From the NCBI GenBank assembly GCA_964534795.1, contig CAZHQK010000112.1, positions 2,277-66,276 of the forward strand: DNA of 64,000 bases. The letters run 5' to 3'. The notes under the pieces were generated by a model that was not told where the DNA came from, did no database searches, and saw only the letters and a program-made list of their open reading frames with translations. Positions 1 to 57,433 of the stretch are shown piece by piece. Numbering within the stretch: position 1 is the first letter of the stretch; the number at the start of each line of letters is the position of its first letter. This DNA comes from an uncultured Acidobacteriota bacterium. Lineage in GTDB: Bacteria > Acidobacteriota > UBA6911. The position numbers and the translations under genes are program-made.

Positions 1-371
1 ATCGCGGTCAGCATCTCCCTGCCCTCGTCGGATGTGCCGATCGACAGCACGCGCACCCGGGGGCTGGCCTTGCCGAGCTCGCGCAGGTATCGGTTGATGT
101 CCTTGGTGTAGGTCAGTTTTTCCGGGGCGCCGATGACATAGCCCAGGATCTTGTCGGGCGACGGAACCGTCGCAGAGGCCGGAAGATGATCCACCAGCTC
201 CGTCAGGAAGAACGGCTCGGTGGTGTATTCCCTGATCTTGGCCGTATACTCCGCATCGATCTGCTGGGCCGCGGCTGCCTTGGCTTGCGGGCCGCCGTAT
301 CCTGCGGCGGGCAGAACACACACAAGGAGAAGGCAGGCCAGCGCAAAATCCCGTCGTTTCAGATCCGCCAT
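1..371 (-). CDS. M14-family metallocarboxypeptidase-like secreted protein, N-terminal part (gene continues beyond window start)
   Basis: Not in the ORF track because no stop lies in the window. Reverse translation from CAT at 369-371 gives MADLKRRDFALACLLLVCVLPAAG (signal peptide), then ...FFLTELVDHLPASATVPSPDKILGYVIGAPEKLTYTKDINRYLRELGKASPRVRVLSIGTSDEGREMLTA. I recognise this from memory as the N-terminal region of M14-like peptidases; it was not searched. Confidence 0.5.
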   Translation of the reverse strand, partial: MADLKRRDFALACLLLVCVLPAAGYGGPQAKAAAAQQIDAEYTAKIREYTTEPFFLTELVDHLPASATVPSPDKILGYVIGAPEKLTYTKDINRYLRELGKASPRVRVLSIGTSDEGREMLTA

Positions 372-615
372 GTGCACCCTCCTTTCATGCCGGTAATCCG
401 GGGAATCGAGTTTGGCATTTTCGGCTGCCAGATACTAACCCGGAAGCCCTCCTCGCAGGAAGTTCAATCGCGCGCCCTCGGGCCCTGCAACCTGCCTGCG
501 GGCGTGAAACCTTCGGCTCCCGCCACCGTCCAATACTTTCAGAATGCCGGGGGCGGCCATCGACAAAGGCTCCCCGGGAATGTAGTCTGATGACTGCGAT
601 TCATTGGGGGGATTG

Positions 616-1449
616 ATGAAGAATCTGTGGAACCGGATTGCAATAACCGGGGTGCTCGTGCTCCTGTGCGCCCCGCTGTTCGCCGACCAGATCGTGCTCC
701 GCGACGGCAGGCAATATTCCGGGAAGTTCATCCGCGCCGACCTGAACGTGGTGGAATTCAGGGTGGCCGGCAAGGTGGAAACCTTCCGCACCACGGACGT
801 CGCACAAATCGTTTTCCAGGAGCCGGAATTGCTGACATCCCCGCCGCAGCCGCGCACGGCGCCGCCCGCTCACGAACCCGCTCGGACCCAGGCTCCACAA
901 CAGACGCGAGCGGCAGCCGATTCCGAGCCGGTCCCCGTGGTGACGCTGCCGGAAGGCACCCAGATAATCGTTCGCACCACCATCGCAATCGACACCGATC
1001 GCAATCGCGTCGGCGACCCCTTCGATGCGGTTCTCGAGCAACCGCTGGCCCTGGGGAGCCAGGTGCTCGTTCCGCGCGGGGTGCCGGTCAAGGGCAGAAT
1101 CGCATACTCACGGGAGTCAGGAAAACTCAGCGGGCAGTCCATGCTCATCCTGGAACTTACCCAACTGACAACGGGCGGTCGGACTTACCAGCTGAGCACA
1201 ACCGATTACAGCCAGCAGGGGGCGTCGCGCGGCAAGGAGACCGCGGGCACGGTCGGCGGCGGCGCCGCACTGGGAGCAATCATCGGAGCCATCGCGGGCG
1301 GCGGCAAAGGAGCTGCCATCGGAGCCGCGACCGGAGCCGCCGTAGGCGCCGGGGTCCAGGTGGTGACCAGCGGCGAGACCCTGAAGGTTCCGGCGGAGAC
1401 CGTCCTGGAATTCAGGCTGCAGCACCCCCTGGCGATCGAAGTCCGCTGA
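616..1449 (+). CDS. secreted glycine-zipper protein (paralog of 15124..15999)
   Basis: ORF 604..1449. ATG at 616 follows GGGGGGA. Signal-like N-terminus [24 protein letters not shown]-terminal glycine zipper [33 protein letters not shown]. About 150 aa align with the lipoprotein at 15124..15999. Confidence 0.6.
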
Positions 1450-1879
1450 CCGGCCGGCCCGAGCATGCTTTGCTGCACGGCCGCGCGAGCGGTTTCGCTC
1501 CTGGAATCCCCCGCCTTATGGAAGATGGTGCCGCCCCGCCGGAACGCGCACGGATTTCTCCTGCTTCGCCCGGAGCATGAGCTGCGCGAACAGGTGCGCC
1601 GACCGCGCAAGCCTTGAACGGGCGGTGCCGTGCGCAGGCCGGCCGGATTTGGAGACCGCCTTTTGCGTGCTCAGCGAAGCCGGTCGCGGCTATTCACATG
1701 CCCGGGCCGCAATACGCCCTCCCGCGAGCGAACCTTTTCATGTTGCGGCACTCGCCGCCGGGCTGGTAGATTAGGCCGGCAAAGGCCTTGCGGAGCGGCA
1801 TGCCGAGCGGGAGCGCTTCCGATTCCAACCGCATCGTCGCGCCGGCACGCCCGGACGGGGCCGATACGCAGGTGGAGAA

Positions 1880-11724: not shown

Positions 11725-14700
11725 ATGCGCAAGCCGTCGAACCATCTTCCGCTCGGTATATGTACGCTGGTGATCAGCCTTGTCGCGCTGCTCGCAACAG
11801 AACCCGCGCAGGCGCAGGCGCCGGTGGGGACGGTTTCCGGCGTGGTCCGGGACATTACCGGCGGTGTGATCGTGGGGCCACCATCACGCTCACCTCGCTT
11901 TCCACGGGAGCCACGCGCACCACCGCCACCAACGAAAGCGGTTTCTACAACCTGCCGACGCTCCTCCCGGGCGAATACCGCATGACCATCGAATACCCGG
12001 GCTTCGCGACCTACGGTGTGGAGCGCGTGGTCGTCGAGGTCGGCCAGATCCGGCGCATCGACGCCGTCTTGAGCGTCAAGGAAAGCAAGGAAATAGTTCA
12101 GGTGGACGCCGAGCAGGTGGCTCGTATCGAGACTTTCCAGAGCACTATCGGCGGAGTCGTCAACGTACGCCAGATCGATCAGTTGCCCCTCAACGGCCGC
12201 AACTACCTCGAGCTCGCGCGGCTCCAGCCCGGTGTCGAGATCCAGGAAGGCAGGGCATTCGATATCACCAAGAGCCGTTACACGGGGATTTCGGTGGCCG
12301 GCAGGCAGGGGCGCGAGGCGCGTATCACCATCGACGGCATCGACGCCGTAGATGAGCACGTGGGCACCACGACCATCAACATTTCCCAGGACAGCATTCA
12401 GGAGTTCGCCGTCGCCACTTCGTCGGCCGACAAGTCCACGGGCGTGAGTGCAACGGGCGCCGTCAACATAATCACGCGGCGCGGAAGCAACGAACTGCAC
12501 GGCACCGGTTTTCTCTACGGACGCAGCTCATCCTGGGCGGCGCGCCCGAGCGTGGCTCCGACCAAACCCGAGTTCGACCGGCAGCAATACGGCGGGAACC
12601 TGGGCGGCCCGCTGGTCAAGGACCGACTTTTCCTCTTCGGCAACTTCGAGAAGACCAACGAAGACTCCGCCATCTCCATCGACACCCCCTACTTTCCGAG
12701 TCTGACCTCGTATCCCGCACCGTTCGACGAACGCTCGAGCACCGCGCGCCTGGACTGGCGGTTGCCCCGAGGAAACGATTTCTTCAGCCGGTGGAGCCGC
12801 AACGACAACGCCAACCTCGGCGGCTTCGGCGGCAACGCCATGCCTTCCAACGCCAACGTCAACAAGAACCAGACCCAGCAATTCGTCTGGGGACTCGACA
12901 GCGCATTCAGCGCCCGCATCACCAACGGTTTCCGCGCCGCCTTCACCGATTTCAAGAACCGGGTGGTCCGACCGCCGCTGGAAGCCCAGAAACTGACGAT
13001 CCCGGGACTCGAGGAAATTCGTATCGTGACCGACGACGGGCTTCTCGTCACCGGCCCGAACAACATCACGCCGCAGTCCACTTTCGAGCAGTTCAGTCAA
13101 TTTCGCGACGACCTCACCTTTTCCATCGGCGATCACACATTCCGCATGGGTGTGGACATCGTCTATCGCAAGGTCCAGGTGACCAACTATGTCAACGGCT
13201 TCCCCCAATTCAACGCGAACGCGCCCGCTTCCCGCAACCCGGCCGATATCGAGAACAGTACCTTCGTGAGCTTCGTCATCGGCAACCGCAACGGAAAGAG
13301 AATCCCGGGCACGCCCGACAATTCCCATCGCAATACGCGCTTCGGCATCTACCTGGACGATCTCTGGCGCTTGCGTCGAAACCTCACGCTGAGCGCGGGC
13401 CTGCGCTACGAAGTCGACACGCACCCCTTGAACAACGACCTGCCCAAACCCAGCCTGGCCAAGCCGGTCATGCCCCGTGGGACTGAACCGACGCCGATCG
13501 ACAAGAACAATGTCGCCCCGCACCTGGGGATCGCATGGGATCCGTTCTCCAACGGCAAGACTTCCATCCGCGCCGGCTTCGGCATCTACTATGCCATGCG
13601 CGTCAGCAACCTGGTCACCAACGAGCGCGCCACCATCGCGCCCTTCAATTCAGGGAATGACACCATCTCGCTCACCAGGGGAACCTCCGGCATCGTGGAT
13701 TTCAACAAGGACGGAGTGGCCGACTACGATTTCACTCCCGCGCTCCTGCCGGGCGTGACCATAAAGCAAGCTATCCCCATCGTGACCGCCGGCCAGAAAG
13801 TCTACATCGCGGCTCCTCCGGGAACGGAGCCCACGCTCAACGTCACGCGCACCGGTGTGCTGCTGAGCAACGACCTGGTGACGCCGTACTCACAGCAGGC
13901 GAACGCGGGCTTCCAGCGCGAGTTTCCGCTGGGCGTGGTGGCCGACGTCAATTTTGTATGGAGCCGCACGGTGCACGAATTCATGCGCGACATCGATATC
14001 GCCAACCTTTTCCCCGGCAACGGGACACCCATCATTCTGGGAGACGGCTTGCCGCCCACCCGGCAGATCCAAGCCACCAAATCGGACGGCTTCTCGACTT
14101 ACCGAGCATTGACGGCCCGCATAGACAAGCGGCTCGCCAACCGGTACCAGTTGACGGCCTCCTATGCCCTCTCCCGCATCAAGACCACGCTGCCTGACGG
14201 TCTGGGCTTGGGAGGCGGTACGCTGGTCAACCGGAACCTCAAGGCCAACTACGGCCCCGGCGCCCTGGACCGCACGCACAGGTTGACGCTCAACGGTATT
14301 GTCGAACTGCCGCTGGGCTTCCGTGCCTCCATGATCATGGTCTTCAACTCGGGCTTGCCGCAAACCCTCAGCGTCGGCTCGGCCGACCTCAACGGCGACG
14401 GCATCAACGGCGACCCGCTCCCCGGCACAGGACGGGGTTCCTTGGGCAGGACGGTGAAAACTCCTGCCGCGTTGAACGCGCTGATCCGGAACTACAATCT
14501 CTCGAATGCCGGCAAAACCCTGCCGCGCGGCGGCCGCGCCCCGTTCCTGCTCGAAGTTCCGGATTTTGTGACCTTCGGCGATTCTTTCATGTCCCAGGAC
14601 CTGCAAATAACCAAGGTCTTCAAGTTCAAGGAGAACTTCAACCTCGAGCTGACGGCACAGGTGTTCAATCTTTTCAACGTCTCGAACCTGGTAGGCTCGG

Positions 14701-15123: not shown

Positions 15124-15999
15124 CTACTTGATGGTGACCGTGAGGTCCTGCTTCAGGGTGAAGGTGAGCTTCTGCTCCGGTTCGAAGGCCACTTCCTTGC
15201 CCTTGGTGGCAAGAACCACCGCAGTTCCGGCACCACCGCCGGTGGCCGCGCCGATCGCAGCCCCCTTGCCTCCCCCGGCGATGGCGCCGATGGCGGCACC
15301 GATGCCCGCCCCGACACCGATCTTGGTGGCATCCTGCTTCACGGTGCTTTCGGCCTGGAAGGAAAGGGTATCGGTGTCGATCGGATGGGACTCCCCGCCG
15401 ATGCGGATCTCGGTCAGTGTGAGGGACATCCTGGCAAGGCCCTCGACGCGTCCCGATCCCTCGACGCTGACGAGCTTGCCCACCAGCACGCTGCCGCGCG
15501 GCGCGACGGTCACGCCTTCCACAGCGAGATCCTGATCGAGCACCGCCTCGAACTTATCACCCGCGTTGTTCTTGCCCGAGTTGAGGGCCTGCGCGAGCCG
15601 CACCGGCAACTTGGTTCCGGAAGCCACCACTATCGGCTTGGGCTTTGCCGGCGCCGCCGGCGCCAGCGCAGCGGGCGCGGCCGGCTGATCAGGGAGTGCC
15701 GCCGTGGCGCCCGACGGGCGAGTGGACGGCTGCGCGGCCGCAGGAGCGGCCGCCTTGGGTGCACCGGCAGGCCGGCTCGCAGCCGCGGGCTGCTGGGCCT
15801 GCGGAGCGGGCGGCTCTACCTGCGCAGCAGGTGCCGGCGCCGGTTCCGCAGGCTGCACGGCGGGTTCGGCCGGCTGCTGTGCGGTCGCCTGATCGGGAGA
15901 GGTGCCCTGCGGCTGCGCAGCCGGCTCACCGGCCGGCTTGCCGCATCCGGCGAGCGCGACGAGAGAAAGAACGACAACCAGCGTGCTTAGGTGACGCAT
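15124..15999 (-). CDS. lipoprotein with Pro/Ala-rich linker and C-terminal glycine zipper (paralog of 616..1449)
   Basis: ATG 15999 with [11 protein letters not shown]. Lipobox MRHLSTLVVVLSLVALAGC. About 110 aa of P/A/Q-rich linker. Conserved core ...PRGSVLVGKLVSV... and [31 protein letters not shown]. Confidence 0.65.
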   Translation of the reverse strand: MRHLSTLVVVLSLVALAGCGKPAGEPAAQPQGTSPDQATAQQPAEPAVQPAEPAPAPAAQVEPPAPQAQQPAAASRPAGAPKAAAPAAAQPSTRPSGATAALPDQPAAPAALAPAAPAKPKPIVVASGTKLPVRLAQALNSGKNNAGDKFEAVLDQDLAVEGVTVAPRGSVLVGKLVSVEGSGRVEGLARMSLTLTEIRIGGESHPIDTDTLSFQAESTVKQDATKIGVGAGIGAAIGAIAGGGKGAAIGAATGGGAGTAVVLATKGKEVAFEPEQKLTFTLKQDLTVTIK

Positions 16000-16130
16000 G
16001 GCGTTCGACCTCCTTCTATGGGAAACGGAGCATTGACGCTCAATCATACCATTTAGATCGCCTCAGGCTAAATAGCGCCTGTCACCGGCATTGCGATTCA
16101 GACTCAGGAGAGCCTGAGTGCAGGCACAAA

Positions 16131-16232
16131 GGTCTGTCGGCCCTCCGGGGCTCTGTTGATCGATACGCTCCTTTCCGGGGGTTCGCCTGCGGCTCACCCC
16201 CGGCTGCCGGCTCGGGGCCCCTGCCGGGGCCG
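16131..16232 (-). repeat. structured repeat unit, copy A (sense assigned by predicted fold)
   Basis: 95/102 identical to copy B, exactly 220 bp away, with no indels. Contains three hairpins (see findings). Confidence 0.8.
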
Positions 16233-16235
16233 TAT

Positions 16236-16334
16236 CCGTCCCGGAGGGACGGAAGCTGGTAGCTCCAGGTGAGCGGAGAGCGAACCTGGAGAAAAGCGAC
16301 GGCATGCGACAAGCCCCGAAGGGCCGGCAGAGGG
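16236..16334 (+). repeat. structured repeat unit, copy C (inverted relative to A and B, diverged)
   Basis: Aligns to the reverse complement of A/B at roughly 65-70 percent. The segments GCTGGTAGC, GTGAGC and GCGAAC are conserved, and both arms of two stems are changed in a compensatory way. Confidence 0.65.
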
Positions 16335-16350
16335 ATAAATCAGAAACGTC

Positions 16351-16452
16351 GGTCTGTCGGCCCTCCGGGGCTCGACTGATCGATACGCTCCTTTCCGGGG
16401 GTTCGCCTTCGGCTCACCCCCGGCTACCAGCTCAGGGCCCCTGCCGGGGCCG
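16351..16452 (-). repeat. structured repeat unit, copy B
   Basis: Direct repeat of copy A (7 substitutions). Confidence 0.8.
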
Positions 16453-16571
16453 GATGGTAGGTCGGCCGCGCCGCTGCGGACCGCGCGACGCGCGGGACCT
16501 GCAGGCGCCCGGAACGTACCCGCCGGACCGCAACACAGCCCGAGTCCTCGACGCGACATGCCTCTGCCGTT

Positions 16572-18980
16572 TCATCGGGGCTCGAGCAGCAGCCGCTCTT
16601 CGGCCACCGACTCGATCTTTGCGCGGCTGAAAAAGACCGGAAAGTATTTTCCCGCGGCCCACATCTCGAAAAGATCACGGTAATGGGGACTGGCGGGATC
16701 TCCGGACTGGCCCGGATTGTTGGTTCCCACGCAATTATCCCAATTTTCGAGATCCGCAATGATGCGGAACGAGGCACCGGAGGTCTGGTTGTCGCCGCCG
16801 CCGGTGGCATTGACGGTCGATGCGCTGCCGCCGCGCGGCAGCGGGCCCACGTCCAGCCTCCCGCGAAGATCGACGCTCACCGCCGCGCTCAGCGGGTGGC
16901 GGATCAGCACGTGCTTGAACTTCGCCTGCCCATACTGCCAGCGGCTCTGGTCTCCGCCCAGGCGCTGCGCCAGGTCCGCGACCGCTTCCTCGAGAGTGCG
17001 GGCAAGGAGAGCGTCTCTGGCGGCCGTGGGGTCGGCACCCCAGCGGCCGTCCGGCGCGGCGATCCAGTCGAGCATGCGCTTCAGGTTGATGCCGCCCAGC
17101 AACTTCCGTGCAGCTTCCGGTACCATCAGGTCGCGGACGCGGTTTTGCAGGCGCCGCTCCCAGGAAACGTAGATCGCGGCCGCCACGGAGTCCTTGTCCA
17201 GCACGCAGTCCCAGGCGAGCAACAGGTCGCGCACCCTCGCGGCCGCCGCATCGGCAAGCGGCAGGTCTTTGAGGAAAGCAATCAAATTGCGTGCCGGGAT
17301 GGAAAGCTCGTCCTGCTGCAGCCTCATCATGTCGGCGACCGTGAACCTGCGCCCCGACGCGAGTACCTCGTCGATGCGCGCGGCGCGCATCTCGTCGCCC
17401 CAGCTGTAATGGAGAGCCTCGACGTGCGGGTAGCCGTCCGGCACCATGTAGTTGTTGGCCGTACGTATGTAGCCCTCGGGAGGATTGTACATGCTCGGCA
17501 GGGCAAGGATGGGAAGATAGCCGTCCCATTCGTAGCGGCCGTCGCCCGGGACCGGAACCAGGCCGCTCCAGCCCGGACGGATGGGCGAAATACCCACGGC
17601 TTGGTAGCCTATGTTTCCCTTCCTGTCGGCCCAGACCATGTTTTCCGCAGGTATCCGGCTGTAACTGCAGGCCTCGCGGAATTCCTCCCAGGTCCGTGCC
17701 TGATCCATGCGCAGGCTCGCCAGGTAGGGCGCGCACCCTGCTTCCAGCCAGGCGGCCCGGAGCGCGTAAGCCTTGCGGCGCGCGCCGTCTTCGTGCAGCA
17801 CCGGGCCGTGACGCGTGTACTTCAGCACGACTTCGACCGGGGCTTCGCCTTTCACGGGGATCGACTCGCGCACGGTCTTCATTTCCTCCCAGTCGCCGCG
17901 GTATCGATAGCGCAGAGGATTGGCCGGATCCGTCTCGTAGACATATAGGTCCTCGCTGTCCTGGCCGAAGACGGTCAGCCCCCAGGCTCCGTGCTCGTTG
18001 TGGCCTATGGAGACGCCGGGGAGCGCCGGTTCCCCGCCCCCGATTACGTTCCACCCAGGCGCCGAAAGGTGGACCCAATAGCGGAGCGAAGGGATCTGCT
18101 GCGCCCGGTGCGGGTCATTGGCCAGTATCGGCAGCCCCGTGAGCGTCCGCCGGCCGCCGACGACCCAGTTGTTGCTGCCCGCGGGCGGATTCCACCAATC
18201 CTCTTCCTCTGCGGCATGCAGTGCGCCTTCGAGCGCTTCGTAGGAGGCCCGGGCGGCACGGTACGGGGGCGCGACATCCTCCGGCTGGAAGCGCAGGGGG
18301 GAGCGAAAGGCGTTGTAAAGATCGAGAACCGCCTCCGACAGCAGCGATCCATCGATCGCCGGATCGAGCGCGAGCGGCGGCGAACCCGGGCGGAACCAGG
18401 AAAGCTCGCGCACCCTCTCCGGCCCGAGCAGGGCCACGGCCCTGCCGTAACTGAGTTCCTGCGTAAGGTTGCCGAGCAATCCGGCATGCCGGGATACCAC
18501 CACCTCGGGCGTCCACCTGCCGGGCCTGATTCCCAGCAGGCGAAACTCCAGCGGCAGCAGCTCCGGATTGCGCCCGGCGGCCTCGATGTAGGCGTTGATC
18601 CCCCTGACGAAAGCGCCGACGATCTGCTCGCCGCGCGGATGGTAATGGCCGAGCTCCCGGCGCATGTCGCCGCGGAACTTGAGGAGCCGCGCGCCGATGT
18701 CGCGCGCGAGTTCCCGCCTGCCCAGCAACTCGGCGCAGGTGCCGGTCGCCTGGCGGCGCCACATTTCGAGCTGGAACAACCGATCCCGCGCCGCGTTGTA
18801 ACCCTGGGCGAAGAACAGATCGCTCTCGTTCTCGGCGTAGATGTGACAGATTCCCCAGCGATCGCGGATGATCTCCACGGGCCGGCCCAGACCTTCGACC
18901 TTCAGCGTTTGCGCCTGCCCCCGGGCATCCGCAGCCGGCAGCACGAAAAGAAAGGACACAAGCAACCATGGTCGGATCAT
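16572..18980 (-). CDS. penicillin acylase-family (S45) Ntn hydrolase, secreted (possible AHL/beta-lactam acylase)
   Basis: ATG 18980 after AGGGGGA. Signal MIRPWLLVSFLFVLPAADA. DRWGICHIYAENESDLFFAQGYNAARDRLFQLEMWRR. Nucleophile context AGSNNWVVGGRRT...ANDPHR. Confidence 0.85.
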   Translation of the reverse strand: MIRPWLLVSFLFVLPAADARGQAQTLKVEGLGRPVEIIRDRWGICHIYAENESDLFFAQGYNAARDRLFQLEMWRRQATGTCAELLGRRELARDIGARLLKFRGDMRRELGHYHPRGEQIVGAFVRGINAYIEAAGRNPELLPLEFRLLGIRPGRWTPEVVVSRHAGLLGNLTQELSYGRAVALLGPERVRELSWFRPGSPPLALDPAIDGSLLSEAVLDLYNAFRSPLRFQPEDVAPPYRAARASYEALEGALHAAEEEDWWNPPAGSNNWVVGGRRTLTGLPILANDPHRAQQIPSLRYWVHLSAPGWNVIGGGEPALPGVSIGHNEHGAWGLTVFGQDSEDLYVYETDPANPLRYRYRGDWEEMKTVRESIPVKGEAPVEVVLKYTRHGPVLHEDGARRKAYALRAAWLEAGCAPYLASLRMDQARTWEEFREACSYSRIPAENMVWADRKGNIGYQAVGISPIRPGWSGLVPVPGDGRYEWDGYLPILALPSMYNPPEGYIRTANNYMVPDGYPHVEALHYSWGDEMRAARIDEVLASGRRFTVADMMRLQQDELSIPARNLIAFLKDLPLADAAAARVRDLLLAWDCVLDKDSVAAAIYVSWERRLQNRVRDLMVPEAARKLLGGINLKRMLDWIAAPDGRWGADPTAARDALLARTLEEAVADLAQRLGGDQSRWQYGQAKFKHVLIRHPLSAAVSVDLRGRLDVGPLPRGGSASTVNATGGGDNQTSGASFRIIADLENWDNCVGTNNPGQSGDPASPHYRDLFEMWAAGKYFPVFFSRAKIESVAEERLLLEPR

Positions 18981-19387
18981 AGTATCCCCCTGTCGAGAGC
19001 GCATTGTAACCCGAGCCCGAGGCAAACATGCCCATCGGGCATCGGCGCCCGCAGAGGGACCGGACCCAAGGATACGCCGATCCCTCGAATCCGAGCGCTG
19101 AAAGCCGATTGCTGCAGGCCCCGAAGAACGGCCTCCCGGCCATTCAGCCGTTGAACGGAGCGGCCCGGGCGCCTTGCCCGTGCCGGCTTTCTTCCTGCAG
19201 ATTGCCGCCGGGTTTGTCGAAGAGAAGGAATGTGCAGGCGATCGATGACGCCCCGGAAAGAGCCCACACGGCACCCGGCGGGAACGCGCAGGGAGAAGCA
19301 TCGAATCCCGCAGCGACCGGCGCGGCAGTCGCCGAGGAGCAGGCCGATGGCACGAGCAGGCAGGACGAGCCGCCGGCCGAGGCGCGC

Positions 19388-49601: not shown

Positions 49602-51086
49602 ATGCTTCTGGAAGATCTGATGCGCGCGATTCCGGGAACCTCGGCACGAGGGGATACGCGCGTCGAAATCCGCGGCCTGTGCTGCGACTCCCGGCAGGCG
49701 GCGCCGGGATTCCTTTTCGTCGCCCTGCGCGGCGCGCGCGACGACGGCAACCGATACGTCGGCGACGCGCTCGCCCGCGGAGCCGTCGCCCTCGCCTCCG
49801 AGCAGGAGCCGGACGCGCCCGAAGGAATCCCGTGCCTCAAGGTCGCCGACGCACGCTGCTTCCTGGCGGAAGCGGCGCGCATCTTTTACGGCGATCCCGC
49901 GGCCCGGATGAAACTGGCGGCCGTGACCGGCACCAACGGCAAGACCACGACCGCCTGGCTCATCGATTCGATCTTCCGGCAGGCCGGGCTGCGCAGCTGC
50001 CTCGCGGGCACGCTGGGCATGAGAGCGGGCGCGAACCTCCATCCGAGCTCCTTCACCACGCCGGAAGCCTGCGAGCTGGCCCGCTTCCTGCGCACGGCGC
50101 TCGACGAGGGGTGCACCCACGGGGCGCTCGAGGTCTCCTCCCACGCGCTGGCGAGCCGGCGGGTGTTCGGCATGAAATTCCACGCGGCCGCATTCTCCAA
50201 TCTCACCCCCGAGCACCTGGATTTCCACGGGGACATGGAGTCCTACTATGCCGCCAAGCGACTGCTCTTCACCGCCGCCGGCCGCAACGGCGTCGAAGTC
50301 GCCGCCATCAACGCCGACGACCCCTACGGCCGGCGCCTGATCGGCGAGGCGGAATGCCGGGTCGTGCGCTACGGCATCGAGGAACCGGCCGAGGTGCGGC
50401 TGCTTCGGGCCGCGAAGCGCGCCGACGGCAGCGACATCGCCGCGGCCACGCCCGCCGGCGACATCGCCCTGCGCACGCGCCTCATCGGAACGCCCAACAT
50501 CTACAACGTGCTCGCCGCCATCGCCGTCGCGCTCTCGTTCGGCATCGATACGGCCGCGATCCGCGCCGGCATCGAGGCCGTCGCCGCCATCCCCGGAAGG
50601 CTCGAGCTCGTGAGCGCCGGGCAGGATTTCACGGTGCTGGTCGACTACGCCCACACTCCCGACGCCCTGGCCAAGCTGCTGGAAACCGTGGCCGAGCTGC
50701 CCCACCGGCGCATCATCACGGTCTTCGGATGCGGCGGCGACCGCGACCGCCGCAAGCGCCCGCTTATGGGCGAAATCGCCGGCCGGCTCAGCGACCAGGT
50801 CATCGCCACCTCGGACAACCCCAGGAGCGAGGACCCGCTGGCGATCCTGGCGGAGATCGAGCCCGGGCTGCGCCGCGCGGGCGCGGCCTACCGCATCGAA
50901 CCGGACCGGCGCCGCGCCATCGCGCTGGCCGTGTCGATGGCCCGCCGCGGCGACGCAGTGGTGATCGCGGGCAAAGGTCATGAGGATTATCAGATCGTGG
51001 GGACCCAGGTGCTGCCGTTCGACGACCGCGCCGTCGCCCGCGAGGCGCTCGCGCGGCTGCACGACACTCAAGGAGCTCGGAACTGA
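49602..51086 (+). CDS. murE: UDP-MurNAc-L-Ala-D-Glu:meso-DAP ligase
   Basis: AVTGTNGKTTT...DYAHTPDAL...GCGGDRDRRKRPLMG...SDNPRSEDP. Confidence 0.9.
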   Translation: MLLEDLMRAIPGTSARGDTRVEIRGLCCDSRQAAPGFLFVALRGARDDGNRYVGDALARGAVALASEQEPDAPEGIPCLKVADARCFLAEAARIFYGDPAARMKLAAVTGTNGKTTTAWLIDSIFRQAGLRSCLAGTLGMRAGANLHPSSFTTPEACELARFLRTALDEGCTHGALEVSSHALASRRVFGMKFHAAAFSNLTPEHLDFHGDMESYYAAKRLLFTAAGRNGVEVAAINADDPYGRRLIGEAECRVVRYGIEEPAEVRLLRAAKRADGSDIAAATPAGDIALRTRLIGTPNIYNVLAAIAVALSFGIDTAAIRAGIEAVAAIPGRLELVSAGQDFTVLVDYAHTPDALAKLLETVAELPHRRIITVFGCGGDRDRRKRPLMGEIAGRLSDQVIATSDNPRSEDPLAILAEIEPGLRRAGAAYRIEPDRRRAIALAVSMARRGDAVVIAGKGHEDYQIVGTQVLPFDDRAVAREALARLHDTQGARN

Positions 51087-51159
51087 AGTGAGCTTCGTCA
51101 CCAATCTCACGATTCACGACCTGCGCTACAACGGCACACGACCGGCGACGGCTACACTC

Positions 51160-52581
51160 ATGGATATGATCATGCAACAGATCACAGCAGCCCAGGTGGA
51201 AGCGTGCACCGGGGGCGCCCTGATCCGCGGGCCCCGCTCCCTCGTCTTCTCCGGGGTTTCCATCGACAGCCGCACCTTGCGCGCCGGCGACCTCTTCTTC
51301 GCCATCCGCGGCCGGCACCACGACGGCCACGGTTTCATCGCCGCCGCCCTCGAGCGCGGGGCGGCAGGCGCCGTGATCGACGACCGGCAGGCCCCCCCGG
51401 CGGACTTCCCCGCCGACCGCGTTCTCCTGCAGGTGCGCGATACCCATCAGGCGCTCAAGGATCTGGCCGCGGAGGTCCGGCGGCGCTGGCAGGGCAGCCT
51501 GGTGGCCGTGACGGGCAGCATGGGCAAGACCACGACCAAGGAGTTCGCCTATCACGTGCTCAGGACGGAGTTCAGCGTCTACCGCTCGGCCGGCAACCTC
51601 AACAACCTCTTCGGCCTCCCCCTCGCCCTGTTCGGTCTCAGCCCCGACGACCACATCGGCATATTCGAGATGGGGATGAGCGCCCCGGGCGAAATCCGCG
51701 AGATGTGCGCCGTCGCGCGGCCCGACGTCGGGATCATCATCAATGTCGCGCCCGTGCATCTGGAATTCTTCGGCAGCCTCGAGGAAATCGCGCGCGCCAA
51801 GGGCGAACTGGCCGAGGGATTGCGGCCCGACGGAACGTTGGTCTACAACGCCGCCGACCCGCTGGTGCGCGGCATCGCATCGCGCTTCCCGGGCAACCGC
51901 GTCTCCTTCGCCCTGTCGGCGGCCGCCGACGTGCGCGCCGACGAAATCGAGGTGCTCGGTCTCGACGAGACCCGCTTCCGGCTGACCTGCGGCGGACTGT
52001 CTTGGAGCGCGACGATACCTCTGGGCGGCGCGCACTATGTCGCCAACGCCCTGGCGGCGGTCGCCCTGGGGCGGCACTACCGGGTGGCGATGGAGCAGAT
52101 CATCGAGGGCTTGCGCTCCCTGCAGCCGGTCGGCATGCGCGGCCAGGTCGTGCGCTTCCGGGAAGGAATCACGGTCATCGACGATTCCTACAACTCCAAT
52201 CCCAGGGCCCTGTGCAGCATGATCGAAACCCTGGCGCAGGTGCGCTCGTGCACGCGCCGCATCCTGGTGGCCGGAGAGATGCTGGAGCTCGGGCCGACGG
52301 CCGCGGCGCTCCATTACGACTGCGGCGTGTTCGCCGCCGAGCACGGTCTCGACATGGTGGTCGGCGTGCAGGGGGCGGCGCGCGAGATCGTGCGCGGCGC
52401 CGTGCAGGCCGGCCTGCCGGAGACGCGCGCCTGGTTCTTCTCCCAGGTCGAGCCGGCGGCGGACTTCCTTCTGCGGCAGCTGCGCGCGGGAGATCTCGTC
52501 CTGATCAAAGGTTCGCGCGGCGTGCGCCTGGAAAGAATCCTGGCGCAGCTGCAATCGACATTCACAGCGCAGGCGTCCTGA
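51160..52581 (+). CDS. murF: UDP-MurNAc-tripeptide:D-Ala-D-Ala ligase
   Basis: ...[17 protein letters not shown]...[13 protein letters not shown]...DDSYNSNP... The start is uncertain (GTG 51088 or ATG 51160/51172). Confidence 0.85.
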
Positions 52582-53696
52582 TGCTCTACTACGCGTTCGA
52601 TTACCTGCACCAGTTCATTCCGCCCTTCCGGGTGTTCCAGTACGTGACCTTCCGCACCGCCGCGGCGGGCCTGAGCGCCCTCCTGCTCTGCCTGGCGCTC
52701 GGCCCCTGGATGATCGCACGCCTGCAGCGGTTCCAGGTGGGGCAGCAGATCCGCGAGGACGGCCCCGCCTCCCACAGAAACAAGGCCGGCACGCCCACGA
52801 TGGGAGGCATCCTGATCCTGATCGGCATCCTTCTTCCCACGCTCCTGTGGGCCAACCTGGCGAACCTCTTCATCTGGGTGGCGGTGGGCGCAACCGTGCT
52901 CTTCGGCCTGGTCGGCTTCGCCGACGACTACGCCAAGATCGTCCACAAGAAATCGCTGGGCCTGCGCGGGCGGAGCAAGCTCGCCTGCCAGTGCCTGATC
53001 TCCCTGGCCATCTGCGTCGCCCTCTATTATCTGGCGGCCCACGGCTATTACAGCACGCGCCTGAGCGTCCCGTTCTTCAAGAACTTCACACCGGAACTCG
53101 ACCTGTGGCACATTCCCGGGATACCCATCGCCCTGCCGCTGGCATTCCTGGTGACGTTCTTCATCGTGGGATCCTCGAACGCCGTCAATCTCACCGACGG
53201 ACTCGACGGCCTGGCGGCCGGTTGCACCGTGATCGCCGCCTCGGCGCTCACGGTCCTGTGCTATGTGAGCGGGCACGCCCGCTTTGCCGAATACCTGGAC
53301 CTGATCAAGAACAACTACGCGGCCGAGCTGACGATCTTCTGCGGCGCCATGGTGGGCGCCACCCTCGGCTTTCTCTGGTACAACGCCCACCCGGCCCAGA
53401 TCTTCATGGGCGACGTCGGCTCCCTGGCGCTGGGCGGTGCGATCGGCACCGTGGCGGTCCTGGTCAAGCAGGAGTTCCTGCTGCCCATGATCGGAGGGGT
53501 TTTCGTGCTCGAGGCGCTGTCGGTCATACTGCAGGTGGTCTCGTTCCAGTCCACCGGCAAGCGCATTTTCCGCATGGCGCCTCTGCACCATCACTTTGAA
53601 CTGAGCGGCTGGACGGAAAGCCAGGTGGTGATCCGTTTCTGGATCGCCGCCATCGTGTTCGCGCTTTTCAGCCTGACGACCCTGAAACTGCGATGA
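52581..53696 (+). CDS. mraY: phospho-N-acetylmuramoyl-pentapeptide transferase
   Basis: The ATG overlaps the murF stop (TGATG). ...[12 protein letters not shown]...GFADDYAKI...[13 protein letters not shown]...[11 protein letters not shown]...APLHHHFEL. Confidence 0.95.
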
Positions 53697-53780
53697 CACA
53701 TCGAAGCGGCACCAAACGGGCCGGGCAGCGGCGGGAAACGCCCGCCGCGCGCCCGCATTCCGGCCGGAGGAAGGCGACCG

Positions 53781-55163
53781 ATGCGCGCTGAACCCGGGCG
53801 CATCTACGGCGGCAGGACCGTGCTGGTGGTCGGCGCGGGACGCAGCGGCGCGGCGGCGGCCGAATTCCTGCTGCGCGCCGGGGCGCGCGTGATCCTGTCC
53901 GACCTGCGCGGCGACGAGGAAATGCGCCGCTCGCTCGCCCCGCTCGCGACGCTCGCCGGCGACCTGGTGCTGGAACTCGGGGGCCATCGCCGCGACAGCT
54001 TCGCCGCGTGCGACCTCGTGGTGCTCAGCCCGGGCGTTCCCGCGAGCCTGCCGCAACTCGAGGCCAGCCGGGCGCGCGGCATCCCGATCATCGCCGAGGT
54101 GGAACTGGCCTACCGGCATCTCGAGGGCATGCTCATCGGCATCACCGGCTCGAACGGCAAGACCACGACCACGACGCTGGCGTGCGAGATCCTGTGCGCC
54201 TCGGGCCTCCATGCGCGCGCCGCCGGCAACATCGGTGTGCCGCTGATCCGTTTCGTCCCGGAATCCCGCCCCGGAGACATCTACGTCGTCGAGCTGTCGA
54301 GCTTCCAGCTCGAGTTCATCGACCGGCTGCGCCCGGCGGTGGCCGCGGTTCTCAACCTGACGCCCGACCATCTGGACCGGCACGCCGGCTTTGCGGAGTA
54401 CGTCGAGATCAAGCGCCGCATCTTCGCCAACCAGACGGCCGCCGACCTCGCCGTGCTCAATGCCGACGACCCGCCCACGCGCGCCCTGCAGTCCGGAATT
54501 CGCGCCGCCATCGCCTTCTTCAGCCGGAAGGAGGAGGTGGCGCGCGGCGCCTTCCTGCGCGCGGGACGCGCGATCCATCGCGATGCCCGGGGCGAGAGGG
54601 AACTCTTCGCCGCCGCGCAGGTCCTGATGAAAGGGGACCACAATCTGGAGAACGCTCTCGCCGCATGCGCCGTCGCCGTGCCCGCGGGGGCGGCGCCGGA
54701 AAGCGCGGCCCGGGTCGTCAGCACCTTCCGCGGGGTCGAGCACCGCCTGGAGTGGGTGGCGGATATCGACGGGGTCTCCTACTTCAACGATTCCAAGGCG
54801 ACCAACGTCGACGCCGCCCTGCGCGCCCTGGCGGCCTTCCCGGGGAACCTGCTCTGGATCGCGGGCGGGCGCGACAAGGGGGGAGACTTCACGCTGCTCG
54901 AACCGCTGGTGCGGAGCAAGGTGAAACACCTGGTCCTCCTGGGGGAAGCCGCCGGCAAGATGCGCGAGGCGCTGGGCCGGGCCGCCGAGATCACCGAAGC
55001 GCGCAGCCTGCCCGAGGCGGTCGAATTGTGCCGCGGCATGGCGCGACCGGGCGACACGGTGCTGCTCGCGCCGGCATGCGCGAGTTTCGACATGTTCCGG
55101 AATTACGAAGAGCGCGGCCGCGTCTTCAAGGAGGCGGTGCGCAACCTGGAGTCCAAACGGTGA
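53781..55163 (+). CDS. murD: UDP-MurNAc-L-Ala:D-Glu ligase
   Basis: GGAGGAAGG RBS. VVGAGRSGAAAA...GITGSNGKTTTT...NDSKATN. Confidence 0.9.
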   Translation: MRAEPGRIYGGRTVLVVGAGRSGAAAAEFLLRAGARVILSDLRGDEEMRRSLAPLATLAGDLVLELGGHRRDSFAACDLVVLSPGVPASLPQLEASRARGIPIIAEVELAYRHLEGMLIGITGSNGKTTTTTLACEILCASGLHARAAGNIGVPLIRFVPESRPGDIYVVELSSFQLEFIDRLRPAVAAVLNLTPDHLDRHAGFAEYVEIKRRIFANQTAADLAVLNADDPPTRALQSGIRAAIAFFSRKEEVARGAFLRAGRAIHRDARGERELFAAAQVLMKGDHNLENALAACAVAVPAGAAPESAARVVSTFRGVEHRLEWVADIDGVSYFNDSKATNVDAALRALAAFPGNLLWIAGGRDKGGDFTLLEPLVRSKVKHLVLLGEAAGKMREALGRAAEITEARSLPEAVELCRGMARPGDTVLLAPACASFDMFRNYEERGRVFKEAVRNLESKR

Positions 55164-56275
55164 GCAAGCCTGTCCCGACCCGTTCTTTCGGCAACGACCG
55201 GATCCTGTTGTTCACCGTGATCCTGCTGACGGTCTTCGGACTGCTCATGCTGTACAGCGCCTCGTCGCTGAAGTCCTCCGACCGCTACGGCATCTCGTCG
55301 TTCTATTTCCTGCGCCAACTGGGATGCGCGCTCCTGGGCCTGGCCCTCATGTTCGCCCTCACGAACGTGGATTACCACCTGTGGCGCAGGCGCAAGATTC
55401 TCGTTCTGCTGCTCCTGCTGTCGGTGCTCGGCCTGGCCCTGGTGCTGACCCAGCCTTCCATCAACGGGGCGCGGCGCTGGTTCCGCCTGGGCGCATTGCC
55501 CTCGTTCCAGCCCTCGGAAGCAGCCAAGCTGGTGCTTCTTATTTTCCTGGCCGCCTTCCTGGAACGATACGATCGTGAGATCAACGACCCGGCGAGGCGG
55601 TTGCTGCCGTGCACGGCGGTCGTCGCGCTCGTCGCGGCCCTGGTGGCCGTCGAGCCGGATCTGGGCCAGACGGTGGTCATCGGCGTGATCGCCGGAACGA
55701 TGCTGCTCGTCGCCGGCCTGAGCTGGAAGTACGTCCTCGCCGCCGCCGCACCGGCGGCGGCGCTCTTCTACTTCGAGGTTTATCGCGTGCCCTTCCGCTG
55801 GCAGCGTGTGCTGGCGTACGCGGACCCCACGGCCGATCCGCAGGGAGCGGGATGGCAGGTACTGCAATCCCTCACGGCGATCGGCAGCGGCGGCCTGTTC
55901 GGCCAGGGGCCGGGGGCCGGCCGGAGCAAGCTCTTCTATCTTCCGGAGGCCCACGGCGATTTCATTTTCGCCGTCATCGGCGAGGAACTCGGCCTGGTGG
56001 GAGCGGGCCTGACCTGCGTGGCGTTCGCGGTCATCATGTTCCGCGGCATGCGCATCGCCCTGAGGGCCCCCGACAAGTTCGGCTGCTACCTGGCCCTGGG
56101 GATCACGGTCCAGGTGGTCCTGCAGGCTCTGATCAATTTTTCCAGCGTGCTCTCCCTGCTGCCGGCGAAGGGGACGGCACTGCCCTTCATCAGCCAGGGC
56201 GGCTCGTCGCTGCTGATGAACCTGGCGGCATCGGGGATCCTGCTGAATATCTCGGAATATGGCGACAGTGCGTGA
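55160..56275 (+). CDS. ftsW: peptidoglycan glycosyltransferase FtsW (SEDS family)
   Basis: GTG overlapping the murD stop (GTGA). ...FQPSEAAKL...EPDLGQ...LPEAHGDFIFAVIGEELG...GTALPFISQGGSSLL. Confidence 0.9.
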   Translation: MSKPVPTRSFGNDRILLFTVILLTVFGLLMLYSASSLKSSDRYGISSFYFLRQLGCALLGLALMFALTNVDYHLWRRRKILVLLLLLSVLGLALVLTQPSINGARRWFRLGALPSFQPSEAAKLVLLIFLAAFLERYDREINDPARRLLPCTAVVALVAALVAVEPDLGQTVVIGVIAGTMLLVAGLSWKYVLAAAAPAAALFYFEVYRVPFRWQRVLAYADPTADPQGAGWQVLQSLTAIGSGGLFGQGPGAGRSKLFYLPEAHGDFIFAVIGEELGLVGAGLTCVAFAVIMFRGMRIALRAPDKFGCYLALGITVQVVLQALINFSSVLSLLPAKGTALPFISQGGSSLLMNLAASGILLNISEYGDSA

Positions 56276-56327
56276 GGCGCTTGCTGCGCGCGCAGCGCGC
56301 CCGCAGGAAGCGGAAGGGAAAGAGGCG

Positions 56328-57428
56328 ATGAAGGTCGTCATTGCAGGGGGAGGCACGGGCGGCCACCTGTACATCGGCGTCGCCGTGGCGAAGGAGCTGC
56401 AGCGGCGCGCCCCGGACCACGAGGTGGTCTTCGTCGGCGCCCATCGCAGCCTGGAAGCGCGCATCGTGCCCAACGAAGGGTTCCGCCTGGAGTTCGTATC
56501 CTGCGCCGGCCTCAAGGGAGTCGGCGCGCTGCGCGCCCTGCGCAATCTGATGCGGATCCCCCGCAGCCTGCGGCAGTCGCGCCGCCTGCTGCTGGAACAT
56601 GCTCCGGATGTGGTCGTGGGCGTGGGAGGCTACTCGTCGGGGCCGGTCGTGCTCGCCGGCTGGTGGCTGGGCAAGCCGACCCTGATCATAGAACCCAATG
56701 CCTTCCCGGGGCTGGCCAACCGCTGGCTCGCGCGCGTCGCCGACCGCGTGGCCGTGGCCCTGCCCGAGACCGCCCGATACTTCGGGCCCAGAGCGGTCGT
56801 CACCGGGATCCCGGTACGGCCGGAGTTCCCGCTCGTGACGCGCCGCGAGCACGGACCGGGCCGCTTGACGGTCCTGATCTACGGGGGCAGCCAGGGAAGC
56901 CACGCGCTCAACACGGTCGTGTGCGAAGCCCTGGAAGGCCTGAAGGCCCTCGGCCCGGGGCTGCAGATCATCCACCAGACGGGGGAAAGGGACCTCGAGG
57001 CCGTACGCGCGGCCTACCGCCGGGCGGGAGTCCGCTGGGAGGCGCGCGCCTTCCTGCCGAGAATATACGAGGAATTCGAGCGCGCGGATCTGATCCTGGC
57101 GCGCGCCGGCGCGGGCACGATCGCCGAGATCACCGCTGCCGGCAAGGCCGCGCTCCTGGTGCCCTTCCCGCAGGCCGCCGACGACCATCAGACGCGCAAC
57201 GCCCGGGCGCTGGAAGAGCACGGCGCGGCCCGGCTGATCCCGCAGAGCGAGCTGGACGCCGCGCGGCTGGTGCGCGAGATACACCGCTACATGGAGCACC
57301 CGGAGGAGATCCGATCGATGGAGGATGCGGCGCGCCGCCTGGCCAGGCCGGATGCGGCCGCCAAGATCGTGGACCTCATTTTCGAACTGGGCACCGTGAG
57401 GGCCGCCCGAGCGGCAAGCCGGAACTGA
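56328..57428 (+). CDS. murG: UDP-GlcNAc:lipid I GlcNAc transferase
   Basis: [15 protein letters not shown]...GGSQGS...[34 protein letters not shown]. Confidence 0.9.
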
Positions 57429-57433
57429 AAGAC

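Follow-up and report, generated by a model that had tools for sequence, protein, structure and literature searches.

The 64-kb stretch of uncultured Acidobacteriota DNA analyzed here (the window) contains, within a single intergenic spacer, three copies of a unit of approximately 100 nt that folds into three hairpins. We consider these three units to be members of a non-autonomous repeat family resembling repetitive extragenic palindromes (REPs) and bacterial interspersed mosaic elements (BIMEs), with a single-copy, IS200-like Y1 (HUH) transposase of subclass 1.2 as the cognate and probable mobilizing enzyme, and we assign this reading a probability of roughly 80%. The same unit flanks a Y1 gene in at least five phyla. 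A first-pass annotation of the window had likened the repeats to BIME/REP clusters and had also suggested an element like a miniature inverted-repeat transposable element (MITE); both suggestions proved apt.

The units are listed below together with their parts (hairpins H1, H2 and H3, a tetranucleotide foot and a tail) and their scores with the covariance model R1, whose construction is given further on.

16130-16233, minus strand: unit A, type 1 (H1 16216-16231; foot GCAG 16204-16207; H2 16175-16203; H3 16140-16151; tail CGACAGA 16133-16139); R1 73.9 bits, also matched by nhmmer.
16233-16334, plus strand: unit C, type 2, inverted and head-to-head with A (H1 16236-16252; foot GTAG 16259-16262; H2 16263-16291; H3 16313-16324; tail CGGCAGA 16325-16331); R1 70.2 bits, 67% identity to A and B, with paired stem changes.
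16335-16349, no strand: 15-nt spacer (ATAAATCAGAAACGT) of the tail-to-tail C-B dimer, the position of the Y1 gene in the full element.
16350-16453, minus strand: unit B, type 1 (H1 16436-16451; foot GTAG 16424-16427; H2 16395-16423; H3 16360-16371; tail CGACAGA 16353-16359); R1 80.7 bits, 95 of 102 positions identical to A.

As first annotated, A (16131-16232) and B (16351-16452) align without indels and start exactly 220 bp apart. C (16236-16334, plus strand) is an inverted unit whose 67% identity is to the reverse complement of A and B. Read 5′ to 3′, a unit begins with the GC-rich H1 and continues, through a linker whose last bases are (G/T/A)TAG, into the imperfect palindrome H2 with its CC...GG stem; a second, variable linker leads to the GC-rich H3, and a short tail closes the unit. 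In the window this order takes the form H1, a linker ending in GTAG (GCAG in A), H2, GAAAGG, a linker, H3 and CG(A/G)CAGA. H2 is a 29-nt imperfect palindrome with the foot GTAG in B and C and GCAG in A, and the other two hairpins of the unit lie on either side of it. The hairpin sequences described by the first-pass annotation were recovered when read back from the window letters: H1 is GGCCCC-GGCA-GGGGCC in A and B and CCGTCCC-GGA-GGGACGG in C; H2, which has a UGA/GAA internal loop, is CCGGGGG-TGA-GCC..GGC-GAA-CCCCCGG in A and B and CTCCAGG-TGA-GC..GC-GAA-CCTGGAG in C; and H3 is GCCC-CGGA/CGAA-GGGC. The compensatory differences claimed between C and A/B were borne out, with the arms of H1 and H2 changing in pairs, whereas the claim that GCUGGUAGC stays identical was correct for B and C but not for A, which has GCCGGCAGC. 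Patterns describing the H2 and H3 motifs each matched three times in the window, compared with 0.00 and 0.04 matches expected from shuffled sequences, and a chance origin of the repeats is therefore excluded. Across the 64 kb, the covariance model recognized only the three units, with scores of 70-81 bits. The cluster is a 1-2-1 array with a 220-bp period. Its units A and B have the same sense as the genes on either side, and the two strands of a unit fold about equally well.

These units belong to a large dispersed population. At least 111 stretches in JGI metagenomes match an exact 31-base H2 pattern; many of these contigs end in the repeat, and one pattern-matched metagenome also holds the relative with a 97% identical acylase that is described below. 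Fetched loci are numbered with the prefix L. The first-pass annotation had proposed counting further copies, and nhmmer with a three-copy profile found at least 324 units in approximately 1 Mb of related metagenome contigs, corresponding to at least 105 distinct sites after clustering of the flanks. The clusters are almost all intergenic and rarely overlap predicted genes (19 convergent, 38 tandem and 12 divergent contexts), with units in either orientation relative to the neighboring genes. Among the units listed, 204 are of type 1 (A/B-like) and 112 of type 2 (C-like), in a sample biased towards type 1, and the two types differ by paired, compensatory changes in H1 and H2 within the lineage. 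Inverted neighbors are almost always heterotypic (72 tail-to-tail and 52 head-to-head, vs. 2 homotypic), and direct neighbors are homotypic (53 cases). The gap in the 72 tail-to-tail type 1/type 2 dimers has a median and mode of 15 nt, which is the C-B gap of the window. Partial units comprising only H1 and H2 also occur, in tandem arrays with a period of approximately 90 nt. Orthologous sites across samples hold 1, 1-2, 1-2-1 or 1-2-1-2 units; strains differ in unit number at many sites, and the count at one site differs freely between near-identical strains. This dispersal, subtype pairing and variation in unit number is the behavior of REP/BIME clusters.

Six-frame open reading frames (ORFs) of the fetched loci were searched by phmmer with IS200, IS608 and YafM sequences, and three ORFs lying between units were recovered: L090 430-894 in this lineage, L030 2632-3138 in Chlamydiae and L016 7222-7920 in Bacteroidales. 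In L090, a type-2 unit lies in sense upstream of the gene and a type-1 unit lies antisense just after the stop codon, so that both tails face the gene. The gene likewise lies between a type-2 and a type-1 unit in L236-L243, and the C(+)/B(-) dimer of the window is this type-2/type-1 arrangement minus the gene. The Y1 protein of the lineage forms a 90% cluster of three members on eight contigs from several samples, and all eight contigs have a unit on the plus strand approximately 76 nt upstream and a unit on the minus strand 9 nt downstream of the gene. Those contigs that reach unique sequence have common neighbors, with a Ser/Thr kinase gene upstream (99.6% identity) and, downstream (95% identity), a stretch that in L239 is an MFS transporter gene. 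In these metagenome contigs the Y1 gene is single-copy at one fixed locus wherever the neighboring sequence is comparable. Many Y1 homologs are on contigs of approximately 1 kb, a length that high-copy repeats on both sides of a gene would be expected to produce.

The association extends well beyond this lineage. An alignment of the three Y1 proteins retrieved at least 569 relatives from species-representative genomes, and we examined the best 80 loci, which come from Acidobacteriota, Verrucomicrobiota, Planctomycetota and a few other groups. A plain sequence profile HMM placed units beside only five of these 80 genes, and a covariance model was needed. When 150 nt on each side were inspected by eye, the succession of a hairpin, ..TAG, a hairpin starting with CC, a linker, a further hairpin and a G-rich tail was seen on both sides at nearly every locus. 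A structural detector recognized it upstream of 47 of 78 genes and, inverted, downstream of 57 of 76, compared with 6.4% of shuffled segments. The covariance model R1, built from 19 units found earlier, none of them from the 80 Y1 loci, gave 149 matches in these loci and, in 59 of the 80 genomes, placed a unit beside the gene with the unit's tail facing it. Such units were upstream in sense in 40 cases, downstream in antisense in 52 and on both sides in 33, while units in the wrong orientation numbered 4 and 8, respectively; the median gaps were 16 nt to the start codon and 9 nt from the stop codon. With the two further cases in Chlamydiota (L030) and Bacteroidota (L016), the flanking of a Y1 gene by the same unit is observed in the five phyla referred to above.

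The three ORFs found between units are members of Pfam Y1_Tnp (PF01797; E 1e-21 to 1e-28), and their signature motifs and length match those of subclass 1.2 of TnpA-Y1. Their motifs are [DN]HVH, WQ and YI[KR]xQ[EK][KE]HH in proteins of 148-151 aa; L090 has DHVH, AWQDGYG and YIRAQEKHH in 148 aa, L030 has NHVH, WQ and YIKNQEKHH, and L016 has DHVH and YIKNQKEHH. In the survey that defined the subclass, it is described by the motifs DH[IV]H, WQ and Y---Q--HH and a length of about 148 aa, and is listed without REPs; its copy number is reported to be low, as is the identity between copies within a genome (Quentin et al. 2018, PMC6006769). The tyrosine motif of the proteins found here is YIxxQxxHH and not the YIxxNP of the class 2 TnpA-REP clade, and a search with regular expressions for the motifs of REP-associated tyrosine transposases (RAYTs; WQxRF and YxxxNP) gave no match because the enzyme is not of class 2. 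NCBI names the homologs "IS200/IS605 family transposase." Some homologs carry the IMG label "REP element-mobilizing transposase RayT," which we take to be only the generic COG name for Y1 transposases. A different Y1 protein, of class 2.1/TIRYT type (NHVH, WQNRF, YIELNP; PF01797 E 1e-10), is encoded at L155 10021-10698 on the minus strand; this gene is in the same metagenome, with no units flanking it and the nearest ones approximately 4 kb away. Two pairs of loci (L159 and L203, L198 and L211) represent metagenome-assembled genomes (MAGs) with two divergent subclass-1.2 genes on different contigs, each of which possibly has its own variant of the unit.

The similarity of these proteins to IS200 raises the question of whether unit, Y1 gene and unit together form an ordinary autonomous insertion sequence (IS) of the IS200 group, with the dispersed units being deletion derivatives of the MITE or palindrome-associated transposable element (PATE) type, moved by the "peel and paste" of IS200/IS605, rather than products of a domesticated REPtron (a single-copy Y1 gene flanked by inverted repeats). 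The NCBIfam IS200 model NF033573 gives 60.8, 52.1 and 86.9 bits for the three proteins against a cut-off of 55, so that two of the three pass; the nearest solved structures are the IS608 and ISDra2 TnpA proteins (2a6m, 2xm3), and the NCBI name of the homologs points the same way. Nevertheless, we think it unlikely that this is a plain IS, as its flanking units are inverted, with their tails towards the gene, whereas IS200/IS605 ends carry hairpins on one strand; moreover, the gene keeps its one locus across samples, with the same neighbors wherever the adjoining sequence is comparable, and its three-member cluster on eight contigs stands against hundreds of units. The low copy number and low intragenomic identity of subclass 1.2 (Quentin et al., PMC6006769) also speak against this explanation. 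The first-pass annotation had also considered that the unit might match the terminal inverted repeats of a known IS or MITE; this is true in spirit rather than to the letter, the unit being the inverted flank of an IS200-like Y1 gene.

A looser H2 pattern, applied to species-representative genomes, revealed the three-hairpin architecture elsewhere, often as inverted pairs, in a Bacteroidales MAG (many loci), an Alloprevotella MAG, a Parachlamydiaceae MAG, a Chlamydiae MAG and another Acidobacteriota MAG. RNAalifold on 19 such units showed compensatory pairs in H2; GGUGAGC/GCGAACC is invariant in that alignment because the search pattern required it. For the units that flank Y1 genes, 92.4% of the alignment cells at paired positions could pair, compared with 72.2% after column shuffling and 37-45% with slid partners, double-change cells numbered 481 vs. 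127 in shuffles, and 17 of 19 pairs had changed on both sides, figures that lean towards structure given that this alignment was fitted to the model. Covariation supports all three hairpins, and the earlier suggestion that the fold is under selection is supported by compensatory changes both within the lineage and across phyla. The only near-invariant unpaired bases are those of the TAG foot (family consensus (t)TAG, with T at 0.86, A at 0.94 and G at 0.96), and the CC...GG at the base of H2 is near-invariant as well. Copies from Acidobacteriota, Chlamydiota and some from Bacteroidales retain the UGA/GAA loop, and the Y1-flanking units of other genomes mostly have a plain H2 without the G-A loop. 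In the Bacteroidales MAG (CASFRV01; L019-L042), the units make up composite palindromic elements of approximately 330-420 bp with conserved outer ends (..GCGAGGC..), each with a second, degenerate H2 (GGTAGGCC..GGCACACC), and a hairpin repeat, GAGACGCGATTCATCGCGTCTC, recurs nearby.

Such strong conservation of the fold could also be expected if the units acted mainly as RNA, for example as a structured cis-element in 3′ or 5′ untranslated regions (an exonuclease stabilizer, a protein-binding module with a G-A loop or an insulator) that is kept by host selection and only incidentally linked to a transposase. Consistent with this, A and B share the sense of the two genes beside them, the unit strand has twice as many G-U pairs as A-C mismatches, and the UGA/GAA loop recurs across phyla. 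In E. coli, REPs stabilize upstream mRNA. This explanation seems to us improbable, more so than a plain IS, in light of the occurrence of units in both orientations relative to their neighbors, including in divergent spacers; the plain H2 of most Y1-flanking units elsewhere, with the apparent invariance of the G-A loop being pattern-imposed; the near-equal folding of both strands, with no promoter or T-tract terminator; and copy numbers per site that vary freely between near-identical strains. The same observations bear on two functions proposed by the first-pass annotation. A multi-copy small RNA does not agree with hundreds of units in either orientation within convergent, tandem and divergent spacers, without a promoter-like site, folding about equally on both strands and physically tied to a Y1 gene. 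An insulator or terminator module as the primary function is not supported by the units, in which we found no T-tract terminator; a secondary effect on transcripts is possible.

The first-pass annotation could not place the unit in an RNA family, and this was upheld: in Rfam 15, neither the window nor nine loci from other phyla had a match at the gathering threshold, Acido-1 and Acido-Lenti-1 included. Below threshold there were hairpin artifacts and Acido-Lenti-1 at 16.2 bits against a cut-off of 37, and sub-threshold matches to F6 and microRNA families reflect the long hairpin of the tail-to-tail C/B pair. Several other candidates were rejected. ARAGORN found no tRNA or tmRNA, and the likeness of GCUGGUAG to a D-loop was judged coincidental. 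A hammerhead-like core (UGAGC...GCGAA then GAAA) is precluded by the flanking GG/CC pair, which leaves no three-way junction, and units of other phyla lack CUGA. GGA loops, as in a decoy of the CsrA type, are not conserved across phyla, and a closing helix around H2 (GCU/AGC or CCUU/AAGG) is inconsistent across phyla. The first pattern applied to the genome collection (GCTGGTAGC...) gave two chance matches only; a contig of Thermodesulfobacteriota (L001 7171-7216) matches this pattern inside a different hairpin (CATAGCTG-GTAGCATGATGTGAGCAACGAGCGAA-CAGCTATG), probably by chance.

At one locus (L097), an IS110-family transposase gene (290-1675, minus strand; PF01548 and PF02371) lies between unit clusters at 52-246 and 1936-2119 and looks like an element inserted into a repeat cluster. 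Relatives of IS110 are known to insert into REPs. A classical MITE of a DDE transposase, or a chance local triplication without a wider family, is the least credible alternative and can hardly be entertained, as nothing beyond the inverted arrangement, the small size and this IS110 gene fits it, neither target-site duplications nor short terminal inverted repeats are seen at cluster edges, the units form a large family tied to Y1 genes, and the IS110 gene interrupts its cluster without being bounded by unit ends, in keeping with the habit of IS110 of inserting into REPs.

We infer the mobilization of the units by the Y1 enzyme, and the steps it would involve, by analogy with IS608 TnpA and E. 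coli TnpA-REP (PMC3733652, PMC6006769, PMC8266576). The full element, or REPtron, has a Y1 gene between two inverted units with their tails facing the gene, here with type 2 upstream and type 1 downstream. The C/B pair of the window is this structure without its gene, similar to a REPIN, and A is a further type-1 unit added head-to-head to give the common 1-2-1 array. A Y1 dimer may recognize the folded H2 and the TAG at its 5′ foot on single-stranded DNA, for instance on the lagging-strand template, and may cleave and rejoin nearby, so that units or dimers would be copied to new intergenic sites. Arrays might subsequently grow or shrink by recombination or slippage between similar hairpins, the latter being suggested by a head-to-tail fusion in L003 that is described below. 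Catalysis by Y1, the single-stranded substrate and the role of the TAG foot are predicted features of the system, and effects on neighboring transcripts are possible.

A number of observations weigh against a REP-like family served by a Y1 enzyme, or limit how far it can be taken. The units are linked to the enzyme by position only, and this interpretation does not explain the roles of H1 and H3. The Y1 gene is outside the 64-kb window, and its presence in the same genome is deduced from co-occurrence in samples, ENA sample ERZ27247220 holding both the acylase-locus relative (L003) and a Y1 locus (L238). With the NCBIfam model REP_Tyr_transpos the proteins score 20-24 bits against a cut-off of 80, so that they are nearer to IS200 than to canonical RAYTs, and a PDB search returned no chain named REP-associated transposase at E<=1. 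Among the 80 Y1 loci, 21 have no adjacent match to the covariance model, several of which still show the architecture by eye. Copy numbers from the collection scans are lower bounds from the sample biased towards type 1, and the wobble asymmetry on the unit strand (G-T 62 vs. A-C 31) is modest and would fit a role as single-stranded DNA or as RNA alike. Having weighed these points, we retain the REP-like family with its Y1 enzyme as the preferred interpretation. A broader proposition, for which we see about even odds, is that subclass-1.2 Y1 enzymes, recorded as orphan relatives of IS200, serve an undescribed, multi-phylum class of REPtrons whose substrate is the approximately 100-nt module of H1, TAG-footed H2 and H3; this class would have arisen inside the IS200 clade, separately from canonical RAYTs, and have been amplified to hundreds of units in some lineages, such as this acidobacterium and the Bacteroidales MAG.

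The neighbors of the cluster in the window are as follows.

15124-15999, minus strand: putative lipoprotein gene, 291 aa, faint Gly-zipper match, with the units in its 5′ flank; supported by called genes in the orthologous loci L003-L005, alignment and a codon check.
16456-16505, minus strand: two degenerate copies of a second short GC-rich palindrome family, adjoining the head of unit B and outside the coordinates first annotated.
16572-18980, minus strand: penicillin acylase family gene, 802 aa, with the units in its 3′ flank; homologs with PF01804, 802 aa, 97% identity; start and stop codons confirmed.

The spacer between the two genes measures 572 bp, as had been stated; on the minus strand, the acylase ends with TGA at 16572-16574 and the lipoprotein begins with ATG at 15997-15999. 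The 909-aa ORF at 16572-19301 (minus strand) over-extends the acylase; homologs of approximately 802 aa place the start at 18980, where an ATG opens the signal-peptide-like MIRPWLLVSFLFVL. Homologs of the acylase put the organism within Acidobacteriota, near MAGs of Vicinamibacterales type. A locus search of species-representative genome contigs with the acylase found no relative, and the lineage appears to be absent from the species representatives. In contigs with 92%, 90% and 75% identical acylases, the orthologous spacer is about 140-200 bp and has no repeat. The spacer of the 97% relative (L003) is 321 bp and holds only ATCCG-GCCCCGGAGGGCC-GACAGACC, which is the head of a unit fused to the tail of a unit via the GCCCCGG common to H1 and H3; the covariance model found no unit in it, and the junction between the window and L003 shows no duplication beyond this GCCCCGG. 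Because the spacers of the 92%, 90% and 75% relatives are free of the repeat, the repeats entered the spacer after the 90-92% split, and then either collapsed in one strain or expanded in the other.

The second palindrome family, GTCC[CG]C[CG]GCG-N-CGC[CG]G[CG]GGAC, adjoins unit heads and is part of the mosaic cluster. Approximately 1 Mb of related loci contains 62 copies, and 18 of these are no more than 25 nt away from a unit head. The palindrome is intact in L003 (about 12425-12520) and degenerate in the window, where it matches with two mismatches. This palindrome was the only recurrent feature in 91 head flanks and 85 tail flanks, which showed no conserved target or duplication. Open frames of 76-134 aa cross the repeat units (window 16063-16305, 16194-16559 and 16304-16630; L236 1-405) and encode peptides such as GGEPQANPRK, one of them being annotated as a gene on a public contig; the units are a likely source of spurious ORFs in MAG annotation. 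Elsewhere in the window (49914-57792), four copies of an approximately 37-nt similarity (..GGCAAGACCACGACC..), 1.6-3.6 kb apart, look like the nucleotide-binding motif that consecutive Mur ligase genes share within a cell-wall/division cluster, and not like a repeat element.

REP/RAYT systems are the standard example of a transposase that has been domesticated and lives with repeats of its own, and almost all work on them concerns Proteobacteria. If the link to subclass 1.2 holds, a second Y1 clade, IS200-like and explicitly reported without repeats, took the same route with a larger and more structured substrate, in soil and gut phyla where such repeats are essentially uncharacterized. This would give an orphan enzyme family a testable substrate. 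The repeats explain why MAG assemblies from these phyla break so often and carry spurious ORFs. The covariance model may be used for masking or typing these repeats, and the TAG-CC foot and three-hairpin layout offer handles for the biochemistry of a Y1 enzyme reading single-stranded DNA. For the biology of the window itself the finding is ordinary, and it is of moderate interest to specialists in mobile DNA.

A literature search that included two key surveys found no description of a REP unit with three hairpins or of repeats cognate to subclass 1.2. Short palindromes tagged with GTAG have been described from Verrucomicrobia and Planctomycetes (PMC3733652), and some of them may be H2 hairpins of the family described here. 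Among known repeats, ERIC/IRU, Correia and RUP elements are similar in size (approximately 100-150 bp, MITE-like), intergenic location and strong secondary structure; however, they are single long imperfect palindromes or are bounded by terminal inverted repeats, are linked to DDE transposases or to none, and have neither a Y1 linkage nor a three-hairpin unit with a TAG foot. IS200/IS605 elements (IS200, IS608, ISDra2) share with our system a Y1 HUH transposase of approximately 150 aa, closest in sequence and in solved structures, and hairpins with a 5′ guide-like tetranucleotide beside the gene. They differ in having distinct left and right ends on one strand; here one unit, in inverted orientation, forms both flanks, and only the flanks have multiplied, while the gene stays as a single copy at its fixed locus. 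With the previously described members of subclass 1.2 (PMC6006769) the agreement extends to protein signature, length and low copy number, the difference being that the genes found here are flanked by a conserved three-hairpin unit; such unit-flanked genes abound in Acidobacteriota, Verrucomicrobiota and Planctomycetota, and one case each comes from Chlamydiota and Bacteroidota. The closest parallel is with the REP/BIME and RAYT systems of E. coli, Pseudomonas and Stenotrophomonas. As in these, imperfect palindromes, here with what may be a comparable conserved tetranucleotide at the 5′ foot (G/T/A-TAG), occur in high copy in intergenic regions, two subtypes alternate in orientation within mosaic clusters like Y and Z REPs, tail-to-tail dimers resemble REPINs, and, as in REPtrons, a single-copy Y1/HUH gene is flanked by inverted repeats; unit number also varies between strains. 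H2 also has the layout of the GTAG-3 REPs of the E. coli type (PMC3733652), namely a tag, a 7-bp stem, unpaired trinucleotides and a GC-flanked inner stem. In contrast to the single 20-40-nt palindrome of a REP, the unit described here is approximately 100 nt long with three covarying hairpins, an invariant CC follows its foot, which in most cases is TTAG or GTAG, and its enzyme belongs to class 1, subclass 1.2 (Y---Q--HH, IS200-like), not to class 2 TnpA-REP (YIxxNP). Finally, while REP sequences are usually lineage-specific, the architecture of this unit is recognizable across at least five phyla.

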